Translations under genes and position numbers: made by a program
The notes under the pieces: model-generated
The model's database searches: none
What the model was told of the DNA's origin: nothing
What the model saw: the letters and a program-made list of their open reading frames with translations, nothing else
DNA from: a virus
DNA: 44,765 nt
Strand: one strand, 5' to 3'
Virus record (IMG/VR): IMGVR_UViG_3300045988_086665
Part shown: positions 1 through 44,765 of the stretch, piece after piece
Numbering within the stretch: the stretch's first letter is position 1
Layout of the letters: each line of letters begins with the position of its first letter

Positions 1-119
1 AAATAACCTCCAAGGGAGCGGAAACGAAAAAGGCAGGAGTTTAACCCCTGCCCATCGCTTTGAGAATACACTGGTTGATGAAGTCGCTGCGGTCTTTCTT
101 TTCGACTCCTTCCAAGATG
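1..119. repeat. Terminal direct repeat, copy 1 (identical to 44647-44765)
   Basis: Read directly: nt 1-119 (aaataacctccaaggg...ttccaagatg) recur base-for-base at 44647-44765. This is the signature of a circular genome linearised by an assembler, or of a short terminal redundancy. Confidence 0.95.
21..52 (-). terminator. Putative intrinsic terminator of the 41-235 gene
   Basis: On the minus strand, a ggcagg-N9-cctgcc hairpin (plus coordinates 32-37/47-52, stop codon in the loop) is followed by tttttcgttt. Confidence 0.45.
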
Positions 120-11146: not shown

Positions 11147-11163
11147 TGTTTATGAGATAAACA
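11147..11163. promoter_or_regulatory. Palindrome TGTTTAT-gag-ATAAACA over the -33 region of the head-operon promoter
   Basis: Perfect 7-3-7 inverted repeat. It is the same element as the 19-nt hairpins at 26782-26800, 28394-28412 and 42327-42345. Confidence 0.5.
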
Positions 11164-11178
11164 TATCGAAAATAATCG

Positions 11179-11186
11179 TATCTTTG
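11179..11186 (+). promoter_or_regulatory. -7 box TATCTTTG, promoter candidate for virion operon 2
   Basis: Exact TAnnTTTG 32 nt upstream of ATG 11218, in the only sizeable gap (196 nt) of the structural region. Confidence 0.5.
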
Positions 11187-11217: not shown

Positions 11218-12525
11218 ATGGCTAAACTCAGAATATACAACGACATCGACAGCCAAGACAACAAGTTTTGGTATCAATGGTTTGGTGGTGACTGCGTATG
11301 CTTTCAAGATATAGATGCTTTTGCGGCAAGCATACCGAAGGATGATGATACCATCGATATGCGTATCTTCTGCAATGGCGGTTCTGTTGTCGAAGGCTGG
11401 GCGATTTACGACCGACTGCGACAGAGCGGCAAGAAGATAACCTGCACCATTGAGGGCAAGGCTGCTAGTATGGCAACAATCATTATGCTGGCAGCACCAA
11501 AGGAGAGCCGCAAGGCATACGAGAACGCTGCCTTTCTCCTGCACAATCCGTGGGTTCCCGGCTGGTGTCTGGGCGACCAGCTGAACGCAAAGGACTTGAA
11601 GAACCAGGGCGAGGAAATGCAGATGTGGCAGGACAAGATGGTGGACGCATACGTAGAGCGGTGCGGGTGCGACCGGGAAGAGATTCAAGCCTTGATGGAT
11701 AAGGACATCTTCATCAGCACCAGCGAGGCTTTGCGCCTAGGTCTTATAAGCAGCACCGTTGCACCAATCAGCGCAAGCGCATCGAAGCGCAATATCGAAA
11801 ATTTTATTAATTCAAAACAACAAAATCCAAAAGCAATGGAGAAGAAAACAGAAGTTAAGGCTTCTCTCCTTGACAAGATCCTCGCCAAGTTGGGCGTGAA
11901 GTCACTGGAGGAAGCAGAGCAGGCGGTGGCAGAGCCACAAGCCAAGGTAGAGCCACAAGCCAAGGTAGAGCCACAAGCCAAGGTGGAGCCAAAGGCTATG
12001 GAACTCAACACAGCGGACGGACAGACACTGACCGTAGAGCGTGAGGAGGGAGACCCGCAGGTTGGCGACAAGGCAAGTCCGGACGGAACGTTTGAAATGC
12101 CAGATGGAAAGACAATCGTTGTCGAGGATGGTGTAATCACCGACATTAAGACCGCAGACGACACCGACAATGAGGGTGGTGAAGGCGGTGAGGGCAGCAG
12201 CGCATCAAGCACCGACAACGACACCGTAGCCAAGTTGCAGCAGCAGGTAGCAGCACTCAAGCAGCAGTTGAGTGACACCAAGGCACAGCTGGCAAGCGCA
12301 CAGAAACTTGCGAAGAGCAAGGAAGATATGCGCATCTTGAATGCAGTGAAGATGGCAGGCGGTGCGGAGAAGGTGCTTGCAGGCTTCAGCAGCCACTACC
12401 AGCCATCACAACGACAGCCAAGCGGCAAGGGCGCAGGAGAGCAGGTGGACGTTAAGGCGGACGCAAAGACTATCAGCGAGAAGGTCAAGGCTTATCGTTT
12501 CAAGAAGCGACCAAGCAAGGACTAA
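11218..12525 (+). CDS. Prohead serine protease (ClpP/S14-like) fused to a scaffold-like coiled-coil C-terminus
   Basis: 435 aa. The ClpP-like core reads IDMRIFCNGGSVVEGWAIYDRL...IEGKAASMATIIMLAA...FLLHNP (Ser and His in the usual contexts). The C-terminal half is low-complexity/coiled coil (VAKLQQQVAALKQQLSDTKAQLASAQ). The gene sits directly upstream of the capsid gene. Confidence 0.85.
   Translation: MAKLRIYNDIDSQDNKFWYQWFGGDCVCFQDIDAFAASIPKDDDTIDMRIFCNGGSVVEGWAIYDRLRQSGKKITCTIEGKAASMATIIMLAAPKESRKAYENAAFLLHNPWVPGWCLGDQLNAKDLKNQGEEMQMWQDKMVDAYVERCGCDREEIQALMDKDIFISTSEALRLGLISSTVAPISASASKRNIENFINSKQQNPKAMEKKTEVKASLLDKILAKLGVKSLEEAEQAVAEPQAKVEPQAKVEPQAKVEPKAMELNTADGQTLTVEREEGDPQVGDKASPDGTFEMPDGKTIVVEDGVITDIKTADDTDNEGGEGGEGSSASSTDNDTVAKLQQQVAALKQQLSDTKAQLASAQKLAKSKEDMRILNAVKMAGGAEKVLAGFSSHYQPSQRQPSGKGAGEQVDVKADAKTISEKVKAYRFKKRPSKD
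11932..11997 (+). repeat. 18-bp in-frame tandem repeat (about 3.7 copies) encoding (EPQAKV)n
   Basis: gagccacaagccaaggta occurs twice, then gagccacaagccaaggtg, then the partial copy gagccaaaggct. It lies in the linker between the protease and scaffold parts. Confidence 0.9.
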
Positions 12526-25400: not shown

Positions 25401-25923
25401 AGCGCAACTGGTAAAGATAATGCCGAATGCAGGCAGCAAGGCAGACACCTACCTTCCAATCATCAACGGATGGGCAGAGCATTTCCGCATCAACACTCCT
25501 TTGCGAATGGCTCACTACCTCGCACAGATTGCCCACGAAAGCGGAGAGTTGAGATACACCAAGGAGCTTGCAAGCGGCAGAGCCTACGAGGGCAGGAAAG
25601 ACCTCGGCAACACCCAGCAGGGCGATGGCGTGAAGTACAAGGGCAGAGGATTGATACAGATTACCGGGCGAGCCAACTACCAGAAGTATGCCAATTATTG
25701 CGGCTTCGATGTTGTTGGCACACCCGAGCTTCTGGAGCGACCATTCGGTGCAACGAAATCCTCGATGTGGGTATTCGACACCTTCGGCTGTAATGAGTTG
25801 GCAGACCAAGACAACTTGAAGGCTATCCGAAGGAAGATAAACGGAGGGTACAGAGGGCTGGCAGAATGCGAAAAGTATTTGAAGCGAGCCAAGGAAGCCC
25901 TGGAAATTAAGGTGCTTACATAA
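25387..25923 (+). CDS. Endolysin, glycoside hydrolase family 19 (chitinase-like lysozyme)
   Basis: 178 aa. AHYLAQIAHESGELRYTKE...YEGRKDLGNTQQGDGVKYKGRGLIQITGRANY is the hallmark GH19/COG3179 phage-lysin core. Confidence 0.9.
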   Translation: MRVTRAQLVKIMPNAGSKADTYLPIINGWAEHFRINTPLRMAHYLAQIAHESGELRYTKELASGRAYEGRKDLGNTQQGDGVKYKGRGLIQITGRANYQKYANYCGFDVVGTPELLERPFGATKSSMWVFDTFGCNELADQDNLKAIRRKINGGYRGLAECEKYLKRAKEALEIKVLT

Positions 25924-25952
25924 TAAACATATCAATCTAACGTTTATAGAGT

Positions 25953-26541: not shown

Positions 26542-26745
26542 GTGCGAAGAACACTTTTCATTGAGAGAAAAGGGGTAGGGGATATGAGAGTTAGATTATA
26601 TATTCATTCAAACTAAGGCGTGCAGGTTATTATTATATAGAGTGTGGAAAACGTACCGAGAACGACCGAAATCGACCGAAAATAGCGGTGTTTATCATAC
26701 AAACAGCTAATAAAAGTTAAAATATTAATATCTTTCGGGAAAAGT

Positions 26746-26843
26746 TTTGGTGGAATGGAAAAATATTAATATCTTTGCATCGTGTTTAAGAGATAAACAC
26801 ATTAAACATTCAGTAACTTAAGCCCTAGGCAACACGGTAAAGC
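26746..26843 (+). promoter_or_regulatory. 98-nt promoter + leader cassette, copy 1
   Basis: TTTG (26746-26749)-N20-TATCTTTG (26770-26777), hairpin gtgtttaagagataaacac (26782-26800), box ttaaacattcag (26802-26813). The cassette is about 90 percent identical to 28358-28455. Confidence 0.7.
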
Positions 26844-26851
26844 CAAAGAAA

Positions 26852-27100
26852 ATGAAAAAGTCAAATTCAAACGTTTTAGAGTTCACAACAAAGTTCATCA
26901 ACTCAAACTTCCGCATCAAGGTATTCGGACGCACAGAGGATGGCAAGAAGATAAACACACTCGTAGGTGTAAGCGGTATCTTGAAGCTCATCGGAGCTGA
27001 ACTTTTCAACAAGTTCATCAAGCGAGCATTGAAGGCAGGTCTGGACGCTTGCCGCTGCGCACTCAGAAGAGGATTGGTAGTGACACTTTATGCTAAGTAA
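26852..27100 (+). CDS. Hypothetical small basic protein (accessory island)
   Basis: 82-aa ORF and first gene behind cassette copy 1. Confidence 0.6.
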   Translation: MKKSNSNVLEFTTKFINSNFRIKVFGRTEDGKKINTLVGVSGILKLIGAELFNKFIKRALKAGLDACRCALRRGLVVTLYAK

Positions 27101-27118
27101 TCAAGGGAGGACATAGAT

Positions 27119-27316
27119 ATGAGCGACTGGAAAGTATGGAGAGTTATCGGGTGCTACGGAAGGTATACCGTAGCACTCGTAAAACCCGAAATCAACGGAA
27201 GAGACAAGGTTGTTGAGCTCTCAAACAAGTGGTTCGGATTTTCAGAAATAAAAGAAGCCGATAAGCTTGCAGCCCAACTTAACAAGCGAGACGGATTAAA
27301 AGAACTTTATGATTAA
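27119..27316 (+). CDS. Hypothetical small protein (accessory island)
   Basis: 65-aa ORF, same operon. Confidence 0.55.
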   Translation: MSDWKVWRVIGCYGRYTVALVKPEINGRDKVVELSNKWFGFSEIKEADKLAAQLNKRDGLKELYD

Positions 27317-27321
27317 AAGAT

Positions 27322-27543
27322 ATGAAACAATACATTTTGAATGCTAAAAACAGCCTTGGGGAAGTTGACAGTCACATCGAGGACTACAGAACCAAGGAGA
27401 GAATGGAGGAAGAGTTTGCACGCATCAAGGAAGTTTACAGAAACAACCCACATGCGGAAATGCTGGAAGAAGGAGACCGACACTTCAAGGTTAAGATGGG
27501 TAGGGTGACATTCGAGTATTACATCACTGAACGAGAAATTTAA
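27322..27543 (+). CDS. Hypothetical small protein (accessory island)
   Basis: 73-aa ORF, same operon. Confidence 0.55.
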   Translation: MKQYILNAKNSLGEVDSHIEDYRTKERMEEEFARIKEVYRNNPHAEMLEEGDRHFKVKMGRVTFEYYITEREI

Positions 27544-27555
27544 ATTTGGTAAGAT

Positions 27556-28026
27556 ATGAAGGAATACGACAAGATACCAGCACAAGCGGTGGTCGAGGTA
27601 ACGACCAGCTGGGGAAGAACCTGCTTGTTAGAGATTGGGCGAGACCTCAAGGAAGGCACGGTGCTCAATGGCTATTATTATCCGGTAAGCAAGGCTTTCG
27701 ACTTTGAATGGAAGGGAGAGGGCACAATGCTGTGGATCGGGGACAACGGAAGGCTTGTAAGCCTTGGAGAAGGACAGAAGCACAAGTATATGATGCTTGG
27801 TCGTATGCTATCCGATTGCGAGTACTTCCTTCGCAACCCATACCAGCGGCACCTCTATTTCCCGAGCATCGCTAGACACTGCAAGGAAATGCGCCAGTAC
27901 TGGCTGTCGTTGAATATCAAGCCGGAGTGGTTATCTTATAAGCAGATTGGCAAGCTGGAGCACAAGATGAACAGAATGAAAACGAAGTTAGATAGACAAT
28001 TTAAAAAAGACAGATATGGAGAATAG
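27556..28026 (+). CDS. Hypothetical protein (accessory island)
   Basis: 156-aa ORF. The C-terminal half (YMMLGRMLSDCEYFLRNPYQRHLYF...PEWLSY) looks like a conserved domain that I cannot name. Confidence 0.65.
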   Translation: MKEYDKIPAQAVVEVTTSWGRTCLLEIGRDLKEGTVLNGYYYPVSKAFDFEWKGEGTMLWIGDNGRLVSLGEGQKHKYMMLGRMLSDCEYFLRNPYQRHLYFPSIARHCKEMRQYWLSLNIKPEWLSYKQIGKLEHKMNRMKTKLDRQFKKDRYGE

Positions 28027-28180
28027 AAGAAACATCAAGAGAACGAAGAAGGGTGCTGGCGCAACGGTCAAGCTAGTTGGCATACAGATAGACAACGACC
28101 TACTGCCGTACATCAACGCATTACCCAACAAGTCACGATTCATCAATGATTTGTTGAGAAAGAAATTTTTCAGTAAATAA
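28016..28180 (+). CDS. Small RHH-like protein (54 aa, below the track cutoff), paralogue of 41-235
   Basis: Translated by hand: MENRRNIKRTKKGAGATVKLVGIQIDNDLLPYINALPNKSRFINDLLRKKFFSK. It overlaps the previous ORF by 11 nt. Confidence 0.45.
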   Translation: MENRRNIKRTKKGAGATVKLVGIQIDNDLLPYINALPNKSRFINDLLRKKFFSK

Positions 28181-28212
28181 TTTGGTGGTTTCAAAGGAAA
28201 AGCGTACCTTTG
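28181..28212 (+). promoter_or_regulatory. Bacteroidota-type promoter with no ORF behind it
   Basis: TTTG (28181-28184)-N20-TACCTTTG (28205-28212). The TTTGGTGG start and the spacing match the two cassette promoters. Confidence 0.55.
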
Positions 28213-28218
28213 CATCAC

Positions 28219-28287
28219 TGAATGTTTAAAGTGGTTACCACTTATTACCCCAGCGACTCGACTTTTTCACCGCTGGGGTATTTTTTT
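28219..28287 (+). ncRNA. Candidate small RNA (about 65-70 nt): 5' seed, small hairpin, terminator hairpin
   Basis: Predicted transcript: ugaauguuuaaag, then aagugg-uua-ccacuu (28229-28243), then accccagcg-N15-cgcuggggu (28247-28279), then U7. It has no ORF. The 5' end is the reverse complement of the AAACATTCAG box. Confidence 0.4.
28247..28287 (+). terminator. Strong intrinsic terminator
   Basis: 9-bp GC-rich stem accccagcg/cgctggggt followed by ttttttt (28281-28287). Confidence 0.8.
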
Positions 28288-28357
28288 GCCCATTTTAAGC
28301 CGTAAATGTAAAATAACATTAAAATAACAATAAAATAAAAAGAAAATCGTTTAAAAA

Positions 28358-28455
28358 TTTGGTGGAACGGAAAAATATTAATATCTTTGCATCGTGTTTA
28401 TGAGATAAGCACATTAAACATTCGGTAACTTAAGCCCTACGCATCACGGTTAAGC
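28358..28455 (+). promoter_or_regulatory. 98-nt promoter + leader cassette, copy 2
   Basis: TTTG (28358-28361)-N20-TATCTTTG (28382-28389), hairpin gtgtttatgagataagcac (28394-28412), box ttaaacattcgg (28414-28425). Confidence 0.7.
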
Positions 28456-28464
28456 GATAAGAAT

Positions 28465-28770
28465 ATGACAACTAATATCAAATTCAACCGGGTTGTTGCA
28501 AAGGAAAATTTCAACAACAACAGTATCGAAGAACTGAAGAACGCTATTGAGAGAGGCATCCTTAGCGAAACAGGTCTGATTGTCGCAAGTGATATGAAAA
28601 AGGCAAAAGAAATATTGAACCCCGATGGTAGTCTTGAGATACAGAAGACCGTTGCAGGAGAAGCTATTGCCTTCCTCGCTGATGAGACCGCAGTGTCGGT
28701 AAGACTTATCCAACACAACCCTCATGGTCTTTTAAAATTCGTCTACACGATAAAAGCAACGGAAATCTGA
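28465..28770 (+). CDS. Hypothetical protein (monocistronic accessory gene)
   Basis: 101-aa ORF between cassette copy 2 and a bidirectional terminator. Confidence 0.6.
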   Translation: MTTNIKFNRVVAKENFNNNSIEELKNAIERGILSETGLIVASDMKKAKEILNPDGSLEIQKTVAGEAIAFLADETAVSVRLIQHNPHGLLKFVYTIKATEI

Positions 28771-32714: not shown

Positions 32715-32745
32715 TTTGTAATCTAAAATATTTGTTTTATTTTTG
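32715..32745 (+). promoter_or_regulatory. Early (rightward) promoter candidate
   Basis: TTTG (32715-32718)-N19-TATTTTTG (32738-32745). The -33 element lies inside the inverted repeat tacaaaa-tg-ttttgta (32705-32720). Confidence 0.5.
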
Positions 32746-42313: not shown

Positions 42314-42345
42314 TATCTTTGCGCCAGTGTTTATTAAATAAGCAC
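42314..42345 (+). promoter_or_regulatory. -7 box TATCTTTG plus 19-nt leader hairpin, promoter of the methylase gene
   Basis: TATCTTTG (42314-42321), then gtgtttattaaataagcac (42327-42345). Position and sequence are the same as in the two 98-nt cassettes. Confidence 0.55.
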
Positions 42346-44646: not shown

Positions 44647-44765
44647 AAATAACCTCCAAGGGAGCGGAAACGAAAAAGGCAGGAGTTTAACCCCTGCCCA
44701 TCGCTTTGAGAATACACTGGTTGATGAAGTCGCTGCGGTCTTTCTTTTCGACTCCTTCCAAGATG
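44647..44765. repeat. Terminal direct repeat, copy 2 (identical to 1-119)
   Basis: Same 119 nt as the window start. It contains a truncated second copy of the 3' part of the 41-235 gene. Confidence 0.95.

Follow-up and report, generated by a model that had tools for sequence, protein, structure and literature searches.

An inverted repeat at predicted transcript starts and upstream positions in a temperate phage of Segatella copri: a possible regulatory element with two uses

The virus DNA of IMG/VR record IMGVR_UViG_3300045988_086665, analysed here over its full length of 44,765 nucleotides (the window), is that of a temperate phage of Segatella copri and carries a 17-19-base inverted repeat, TGYTTR-N5-YAARCA, at six strong promoter-linked sites. 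Some copies of the repeat lie at the predicted starts of transcripts (D copies) and others lie in upstream positions (U copies). We tentatively propose, with confidence that stops a little short of even, that TGYTTR-nnAnA-YAARCA is one oriented cis-regulatory element of temperate S. copri siphophages with two uses, as a DNA operator and, where it is transcribed, as a 5'-terminal stem-loop. Because the start-site copies fold and the upstream copies do not, the set amounts to a natural experiment that separates DNA-level from RNA-level constraint on a palindrome.

Copies of the repeat and their positions

A scan of the window with TGTTTANNNNNTAARCA, allowing at most 1 mismatch, returned 14 strand-matches against 0.31 expected, a count reached by 0 of 100 shuffles. 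A scan for the perfect palindrome with at most 2 mismatches likewise gave 14 matches, against 1.6 expected. An earlier reading of the sequence (the original prediction) had named five copies, and all five were present where it had placed them; the motif scan it had suggested for further copies brought out a sixth, at the lysin/spanin junction, that it had overlooked. The coordinates of these copies and of the features associated with them are collected in Table 1. The half-site centres of TGYTTR-N5-YAARCA are 11 bp apart and most spacer positions are variable. Spacer bases A9 and A11, on the other hand, are kept in U and D copies alike, with one orientation on the plus strand; the element is thus oriented, and a U copy is not simply an inverted D copy.

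All start positions were predicted from the -7 box. In Bacteroidota promoters the G of TAnnTTTG occupies position -5 (PMC6847099), which places the predicted +1 on the first base of the repeat in the two cassettes (26782 and 28394) and on the base preceding the repeat at the methylase promoter (42326). The D copies thus begin at the predicted +1 or +2. The head-operon copy covers -44 to -28 relative to the box at 11179, from which a start at about 11191 is predicted. The -33 TTTG is present in the cassette promoters and absent from the head and methylase promoters. As had been suggested, a single element is common to the head operon, the accessory island and the operon of the methylase and late genes. 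The two cassette copies, which had been counted separately, are both real, but they lie within one duplicated 103-nt block, a portable promoter-leader module, and so represent one independent occurrence, not two. A separate repeat family, D7 (AAATTTGCGTTCTGAGCGG...), was found near some copies of the element, with one D7 copy lying within a coding region.

Table 1. Positions of the repeat copies and associated features in the window
Feature	Position	Strand	Description
D copy 1	26782..26800	+	GTGTTTA-agaga-TAAACAC; predicted +1 of cassette-1 promoter
D copy 2	28394..28412	+	GTGTTTAT-gag-ATAAGCAC; predicted +1 of cassette-2 promoter
D copy 3	42327..42345	+	GTGTTTAT-taa-ATAAGCAC; predicted +2; promoter of the first gene (ParB-like/methylase) of the late operon
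U copy, head operon	11147..11163	.	TGTTTAT-gag-ATAAACA; -44 to -28 of a promoter without -33 TTTG
U copy, cassette	26688..26706	.	GTGTTTAT-cat-ACAAACA; 94 bp from D copy 1
U-type copy, lysin/spanin junction	25913..25929	.	TGCTTACATAATAAACA
-7 box, methylase/late-operon promoter	42314..42321	+	no -33 TTTG
-7 box, head-operon (ClpP-scaffold) promoter	11179..11186	+	no -33 TTTG
54-aa RHH-like protein	28016..28180	+	last gene of the cassette-1 operon; most concrete candidate binder, unproven
Cassette copy 1	26741..26843	+	repeat family D4; ends at the start codon of the 82-aa gene
Cassette copy 2	28353..28455	+	-7 box 28382-28389; heads a 101-aa ORFan

Pairing at predicted transcript starts and conserved sequence upstream

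Base pairing at the D copies was analysed across the unique haplotypes found in relatives (n = 33, from the cassette and methylase promoters and two diverged lineages; 31 belong to the main family). Standard pairs occupied 197 of 198 stem cells (99.5%), a level equalled by 2 of 500 shuffles. The pair states varied as follows: pair 3/15 was U.G in 24 haplotypes, U-A in 7 and C-G in 2, with C at position 3 seen only opposite G; pair 6/12 was A-U in 26, G.U in 4 and G-C in 3; and pair 4/14 was U.G in one haplotype. Two-sided changes were found in 3 cells, all of them at pair 6/12. The D copies of the window fold with -4.2 to -5.1 kcal/mol (copy 1, -4.2 kcal/mol, z = -5.3; copy 2, -4.8 kcal/mol), giving a hairpin before which 0-1 nucleotides of the predicted 5' end stay unpaired. 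In the diverged lineages L361, L370 and L372 the start-site hairpin is in place with altered arm sequences and folds with -3.8 to -7.0 kcal/mol (GTGTTTG..CAGACAC, -5.9; GTGCTTAA..TTAAGCAC, -7.0; GTGTTC..GACAC, -3.8 kcal/mol). Five positions of the D copies (T1, T4, T5, A13 and A17) are nevertheless invariant though U.G there would pair, which indicates a constraint on sequence beyond structure.

Relatives in IMG/VR number 262 for the ClpP-scaffold protein and 111 for the methylase, and the cassette promoter occurs on 90 to more than 120 contigs. The element is kept in more than 130 cassette instances (the relatives that retain D copy 1), in 85 head-promoter instances and in 76 methylase-promoter instances. 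At the methylase promoter the core TGTTTR..YAARCA is kept in 32 haplotypes from these 76 relatives, beside a following stretch of 14 nt that is hypervariable. Covariance models of Rfam 15 gave nothing at the gathering score over the whole window, and in the region 26650-28500 they gave chance-level matches only (E of at least 0.26). The stem was also considered as an intrinsic terminator, and this was rejected: it is AT-rich and weak, no U-run follows it, and a terminator scan made no call.

Elsewhere, TTTG-CATC-GTGTTTA-N5-TAAACAC was seen with the same 4-nt spacer, before short leaders, in metagenome-assembled genomes of a Paludibacter sp. (L339) and a Tannerella sp. (L302). The Paludibacter copy has a proper TATATTTG box before it and a PIN-like gene behind it. 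These two copies may reflect chance, about 70 matches being expected database-wide, or a wider use of start-site hairpins.

The U copies behave differently from the D copies. For none of the three U sites does the family consensus fold (minimum free energy 0 kcal/mol in each case). Of 85 head-operon instances (26 haplotypes), 46 read TGCTTA..TAAACA and so place C opposite A on the plus strand; pairing at this site fell below all 500 shuffles, and 63 of 64 haplotypes have 15 nt between the end of the copy and the -7 box. Most of the 70 haplotypes of the cassette U copy from relatives read TGCTTA-CGACA-TAAACA; in the window this copy lies 23 nt 5' of a degenerate first -7 box (TATCTTTC at 26729). 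The lysin-junction copy has no RNA fold in the window; relatives and the diverged lineage L370 both retain it at this junction, in the form TGCTTR-N5-TAAACA. Across 53-70 haplotypes the U arms are invariant or nearly so, about as conserved as promoter boxes, while variation is found in the loop, in the 5' flank of the cassette U copy and in the stretch that follows the head U copy. U positions are fixed in relatives, two of the three at set distances 5' of -7 boxes, and U sites persist in diverged lineages: in L361 a U copy lies at 84 bp, and L370 retains the lysin-junction site just mentioned.

Sequence is thus conserved at U sites where neither RNA pairing nor coding accounts for it, and a non-folding consensus with conserved arms argues that these copies are read as double-stranded DNA. 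The original prediction had pictured the element as a 5' RNA hairpin whose imperfect copies keep pairing through U-G. Our analysis bears this out for the copies at transcript starts, which can form the hairpin and of which those at 28394 and 42327 do pair through U-G, but not for the upstream copies, which keep their sequence without pairing: the copy at 26688 has an A.C mismatch (-0.7 kcal/mol) and the copy at 25913 does not fold (0 kcal/mol).

The distance between the cassette U and D copies was 94 bp in 94 contexts, 83-84 bp in 5 and 53 bp in 2. At 10.5 bp per helical turn these spacings correspond to 8.95, 7.9-8.0 and 5.05 turns, all near whole turns. Antisense promoters that would turn U copies into 5' hairpins of minus-strand transcripts were considered and rejected, as the candidate boxes lack the invariant G or are variable at the invariant A. 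Short direct repeats (GAACGACCGAAATCGACCGAAAAT) lie at 26650-26685, directly 5' of the cassette U copy, in the flank that is variable among relatives.

Proposed mechanism, rival explanations and candidate binders

In the model that we favour, the D copies start at the predicted +1 or +2 of promoters of the host-sigma type, namely those of the two cassettes and of the ParB-like/methylase gene, and the resulting mRNAs would begin with a 6-8-bp stem-loop. Its most likely role would be to protect the 5' end from 5'-end-dependent decay; it might also serve as a handle for a protein. For the U copies, the model supposes a sequence-specific and probably dimeric factor that recognizes them as double-stranded DNA. 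As the D copies contain the U half-sites and lie whole helical turns from the cassette U copy, the same factor probably binds them too, as a start-site operator, and would repress either through occlusion or through looping. At the head promoter, where the -33 contact is missing, the factor would stand in for that contact or block it. A more elaborate version, which we regard as quite unlikely, is a bifunctional switch: phased U and D copies would be bridged by a phage regulator, looping would silence the portable anti-defence cassettes and the methylase/late promoter, the -33-less head promoter would come under the same control, and the transcribed copy would set mRNA lifetime or titrate the same protein. 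If this were true, the 103-nt cassette would plug any captured ORFan into the timing circuit of the phage at once.

The rival explanations divide according to which set of copies they treat as functional. If all U and D copies were sites of a dimeric phage or host regulator, with the hairpin a functionless by-product, the identical half-sites at transcribed and non-transcribed places, the helical phase of U and D, the stem positions that never vary although wobble would be tolerable, and an analogous palindrome at the same operons of Bacteroides phage BS-TP3 (see below) would all be explained. Symmetric 'compensatory' changes would not speak against such an operator either, because palindromic operators that co-evolve with a protein can also give them. 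We nonetheless think it somewhat unlikely that the element is an operator only. The states found in D copies are those compatible with RNA, with 1 of 198 cells unpaired and C3 only opposite G, whereas C.A is the majority state in U; and the L372 hairpin has altered arms and a spacing of 15-16 rather than 17 nt, changes that should not be tolerated in a fixed dimer site. The reverse proposal, that D copies are 5'-terminal mRNA stabilizers or handles for an RNA-binding protein and U copies functionless relics of cassette rearrangement, draws on the same contrast between D and U in pairing statistics and folding. It also gains from signs of shuffling: the head and methylase promoters are paralogous, having CGTATCTTTGC and the leader motif AACTTAAAA in common but differing in where the repeat lies, and the cassette region contains a partial promoter duplication. 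Relics, however, should decay and not hold a non-folding consensus. The near-invariant U arms beside variable flanks, their fixed spacing to the -7 box and the persistence of three separate U sites, also in L361 and L370, make an element acting as RNA alone improbable in our judgement.

Two further explanations place the function outside this choice, and we give each very little credence. The repeat might matter only as part of a block that promotes gene shuffling and terminates upstream transcription, as in the promoter-early stem-loop (PeSL) cassettes of T4-type phages (PMC2839356). The 103-nt block is indeed repeated, precedes at least 10 unrelated open reading frames (ORFs) in relatives, and lies in an island whose content is variable around three core genes. 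The stem has none of the terminator features described above, though; homology-driven shuffling needs the whole block and not the palindrome; and the U copies and the conserved copy at the methylase promoter are left unexplained by shuffling. Alternatively, the repeat could be a captured site of a host transcription factor, a Bacteroidota SOS (LexA-like) or other global regulator, given that its dyad-N5-dyad layout resembles CTAA-N5-TTAG and TTAC-N5-GTAA boxes (PMC8565304). Its sequence is unlike both published boxes, and in a scan of 185,579 species genomes, limited to the D-type context, all S. copri matches lay at prophage loci.

Several observations weigh against the two-use element itself. 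The relatives are close, so haplotype counts are not counts of independent events, and the shuffle control is optimistic and overstates significance for related sequences. The bias by which U.G occurs only in D and C.A only in U could come in part from common descent within each site class, and the helical phasing is based on three spacing classes. The D stems are weak (-4 to -5 kcal/mol), and some promoters of the 82-aa gene (p82) in other phages have no hairpin at all, which means that the hairpin is not needed for expression of that gene. On the protein side, no cognate DNA-binding protein was identified among the window proteins tested as candidates. For the 82-aa protein, a confident AlphaFold2 (AF2) model (pLDDT 83) gave no match to a DNA-binding fold of the PDB. 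A homologue of the 54-aa ribbon-helix-helix (RHH)-like protein, 59% identical, occurs in L354-356 with no motif within 8 kb.

The 6-N5-6 layout agrees with the description of the repeat as a dimeric helix-turn-helix (HTH) or RHH operator, but none of the binders that had been named could be tied to the site. Two RHH paralogues had been put forward; one RHH-like protein was recognized (54 aa), and the second paralogue was not found in the window. The 54-aa protein shows a strand-helix-helix pattern, a weak MazE-family match (E = 2e-4, below the cut-off) and an AF2 monomer model of moderate confidence (pLDDT 67) with two helices after a strand-like segment. It is confined to this phage lineage, and PDB sequence, Pfam and Foldseek searches all gave no match. 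Because it is encoded by the last, core gene of a palindrome-headed operon, an autoregulatory loop is attractive; with a moderate model, no structural match and a motif-less homologue, the protein remains a candidate only.

The CI-like repressor, also named as a binder, is an unlikely one, because the face-to-face promoter region of its own immunity region has no copy of the element and carries a different palindrome, GAGTTTAAAAACTC. No copy at 1 mismatch or fewer was found in the immunity region (32.2-33.3 kb), whose sole 2-mismatch match (32260) lies inside an ORF and not at the promoters; on these grounds the element was rejected as a CI/Cro immunity operator. The immunity promoters seem to face each other, with -7 boxes at 32738 (plus) and 32789 (minus). 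Their predicted starts are about 27 nt apart, so that the 5' ends of the two transcripts would overlap, and GAGTTTAAAAACTC lies inside the overlap. The same face-to-face layout was seen in diverged relatives with an S24 repressor; no S24 domain was detected in the CI-like protein.

The 82-aa cassette protein was considered as an autoregulator and rejected, since its promoters in diverged phages lack the palindrome and its model matches no DNA-binding fold. In those phages its gene occupies the 'Cro position', opposite an S24 repressor. The protein (26852-27100) belongs to phrog_32997, has 989 homologue clusters and gave a novel-looking alpha-beta-beta-alpha-alpha-beta-beta model. Among loci L351-L358 and L372-L374 its gene is the first of an early operon opposite the S24 repressor in some phages and elsewhere heads ArdC-N/MPTase or RadC operons; it is a widespread early protein of Bacteroidales phages. 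Homologues of Mor, C or C1, and of the Mor- or LuxR-type activators of BS-TP3, were not found in the window.

The phage, its portable cassette and known systems

The two 103-nt cassette copies are 91% identical and share one order: -33 TTTG, 20 nt, the -7 box TATCTTTG, CATC and then the 19-nt repeat, after which a conserved leader of some 52 nt leads up to the start codon. In copy 1 the -33 TTTG lies at 26746-26749 and the -7 box at 26770-26777. The unrelated ORFs that the cassette heads in IMG/VR relatives are small and many of them acidic; the cassette also heads the conserved 82-aa gene. That gene, an LPD11-domain gene and the 54-aa RHH-like gene form the core of the island, each being present in 50 of 51 island-spanning loci, while the remaining content is variable. 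In phages further removed, ArdC-N/MPTase or RadC genes lie behind the 82-aa gene, which suggests that the accessory island is probably concerned with anti-defence.

The leader has a covarying position of its own (26820-26845 and 28432-28457), where CTA[G]GC...AAGC[C] is exchanged for CTA[C]GC...AAGC[G]: 81 unique contexts have G/C, 20 have C/G and 0 are mixed. This is a compensatory change in a 3-bp helix that closes the invariant loop AACACGGTTAA directly 5' of the start codon. The helix may be a second RNA element of the cassette, or the swap could reflect a single ancient event.

The region 28205-28285, directly after the RHH-like gene, contains a canonical -33/-7 promoter, TACCTTTG at 28205. 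The unit behind this promoter measures about 70 nt and includes two hairpins, a small one (AAGTGGTTACCACTT) and one that resembles a terminator (CCCCAGCG..CGCTGGGG, with TATT after it). The promoter and its first transcribed bases, CATCrCTGAATGwTTAArG, are kept in diverged prophages (also L359, L361 and L363), always between the island and the integrase gene. The unit looks like a small RNA gene, and it had no Rfam match above chance.

The termini of the window (1-119 and 44647-44765) are an identical 119-nt repeat, indicating a circularly closed assembly of about 44,646 bp, in which the late operon starting at 42314 runs on through coordinate 1. The phage encodes a Bacteroidota-type tyrosine integrase with an Arm-DNA-bind_5 domain, and other genes include a ClpP-scaffold fusion, a capsid protein, lysis genes, the weakly XRE-type CI-like protein and an N6/N4 DNA methylase. 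Its promoters are of the Bacteroidota type (-33 TTTG / -7 TAnnTTTG), with 11 occurrences of TATCTTTG against 2.1 expected in the window. The species-genome scan used one genome per species and demanded the D-type context, so that free chromosomal sites fall outside its exhaustive coverage; the S. copri prophage loci it returned were cassette or methylase promoters, in at least 4 S. copri genomes with an element-bearing prophage, and the remaining matches, about 40, equal the chance expectation. The S. copri strains HDE04 and HF1825 are among the carriers of relatives. A megablast search of the island against 50,697 phage records gave no match. The literature searched contained no earlier account of the element or the phage group and nothing on the regulation of temperate S. 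copri phages.

Some further features of these phages were recorded. Four tandem 18-nt repeats (GGTAGAGCCACAAGCCAA) at 11910-11999, within the ClpP-scaffold gene, would encode a repeated hexapeptide in a linker. Within 271-325, a canonical promoter with a -33 element (TAAATTTG at 271) precedes a GC-rich hairpin of very high stability, GGGGTGGTG-gttcgag-CACCACCCC; ARAGORN found no tRNA or tmRNA. The related prophages L359-L362 carry a diversity-generating retroelement (bAvd and RVT_1) 5' of the lysis genes and are integrated beside the host lepA gene.

Segatella (Prevotella) copri is a dominant human gut species, and the element offers a concrete handle on how an abundant prophage family links its late genes to a variable set of accessory genes that are probably concerned with anti-defence. 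The compact module of promoter, 5' hairpin and leader could also serve as an expression part for Prevotella and Bacteroides engineering.

Several known systems resemble the element in part. Stem-loops at the 5' end are known to stabilize mRNAs, as in the E. coli ompA leader. The D copies resemble such stabilizers in having 0-1 unpaired nucleotides at the predicted 5' end and in keeping pairing rather than loop sequence; they differ in that their stem sequence is far more conserved than pure structure needs and that non-folding copies exist elsewhere in the same genome. Dispersed or upstream dyads are known from phage P1, whose C1 operators are scattered over the genome, and from Mu, where Mor/C dyads lie 5' of middle and late promoters. 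Here, too, a single phage has one short motif at several promoters that lie far apart, and the head-promoter copy, like a Mor/C-type site, lies where a -35-type contact would be, at a promoter that lacks this element. Unlike in P1 and Mu, several copies lie over the start site and not upstream.

A closer parallel is provided by BS-TP3, the nearest isolate phage (capsid identity 47.5%). Its genome has exactly two perfect copies of the palindrome CTGACA-N5-TGTCAG, each 42 nt 5' of a -7-like box, one at the ClpP/head operon and one at the ParB-methylase operon; in this single genome the motif count alone is not significant and the argument is one of position. The 6-N5-6 layout, the two operons and the synteny are shared with the phage of the window, while the half-site differs and there is no copy at a start site. 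In this relative, too, the two operons are thus marked by a phage-specific dyad, which could act there as DNA only. The proteins that bind Bacteroidetes LexA-like boxes (CTAA-N5-TTAG, TTAC-N5-GTAA and GGA-N5-TCC) are repressors of the HTH-S24 type, to which those of phages are related (Sanchez-Osuna et al., 2021, PMC8565304). The boxes share with our repeat a dyad with a 5-nt spacer; identity as a LexA-like SOS box was rejected because the half-sites differ from the published ones.

The cassette as a whole most resembles the PeSL elements of T4-type phages, which have been described as mobile regulatory cassettes (Arbiol et al., 2010, PMC2839356), and it would be their Bacteroidota counterpart. 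In both, a short repeated block with a host-type promoter and a stem-loop sits in a variable region before ORFans, and one block heads different genes across related phages. PeSL stems, in contrast, are GC-rich terminators at variable places around -35/-10 (PMC2839356), whereas the stem here is AT-rich and weak, always starts at +1 or +2 and is followed by the conserved leader; the repeated promoter/stem-loop block and the different, mostly ORFan, genes behind it are present, and the sequence gives no sign of a terminator or attenuator role. The promoter is of the Bacteroidota -33/-7 type, the phage is temperate, and the repeat occurs also 5' of two core-operon promoters. Operator-like dyads, 5' stem-loops and portable promoter cassettes are each familiar, and no specific family fits the element fully.

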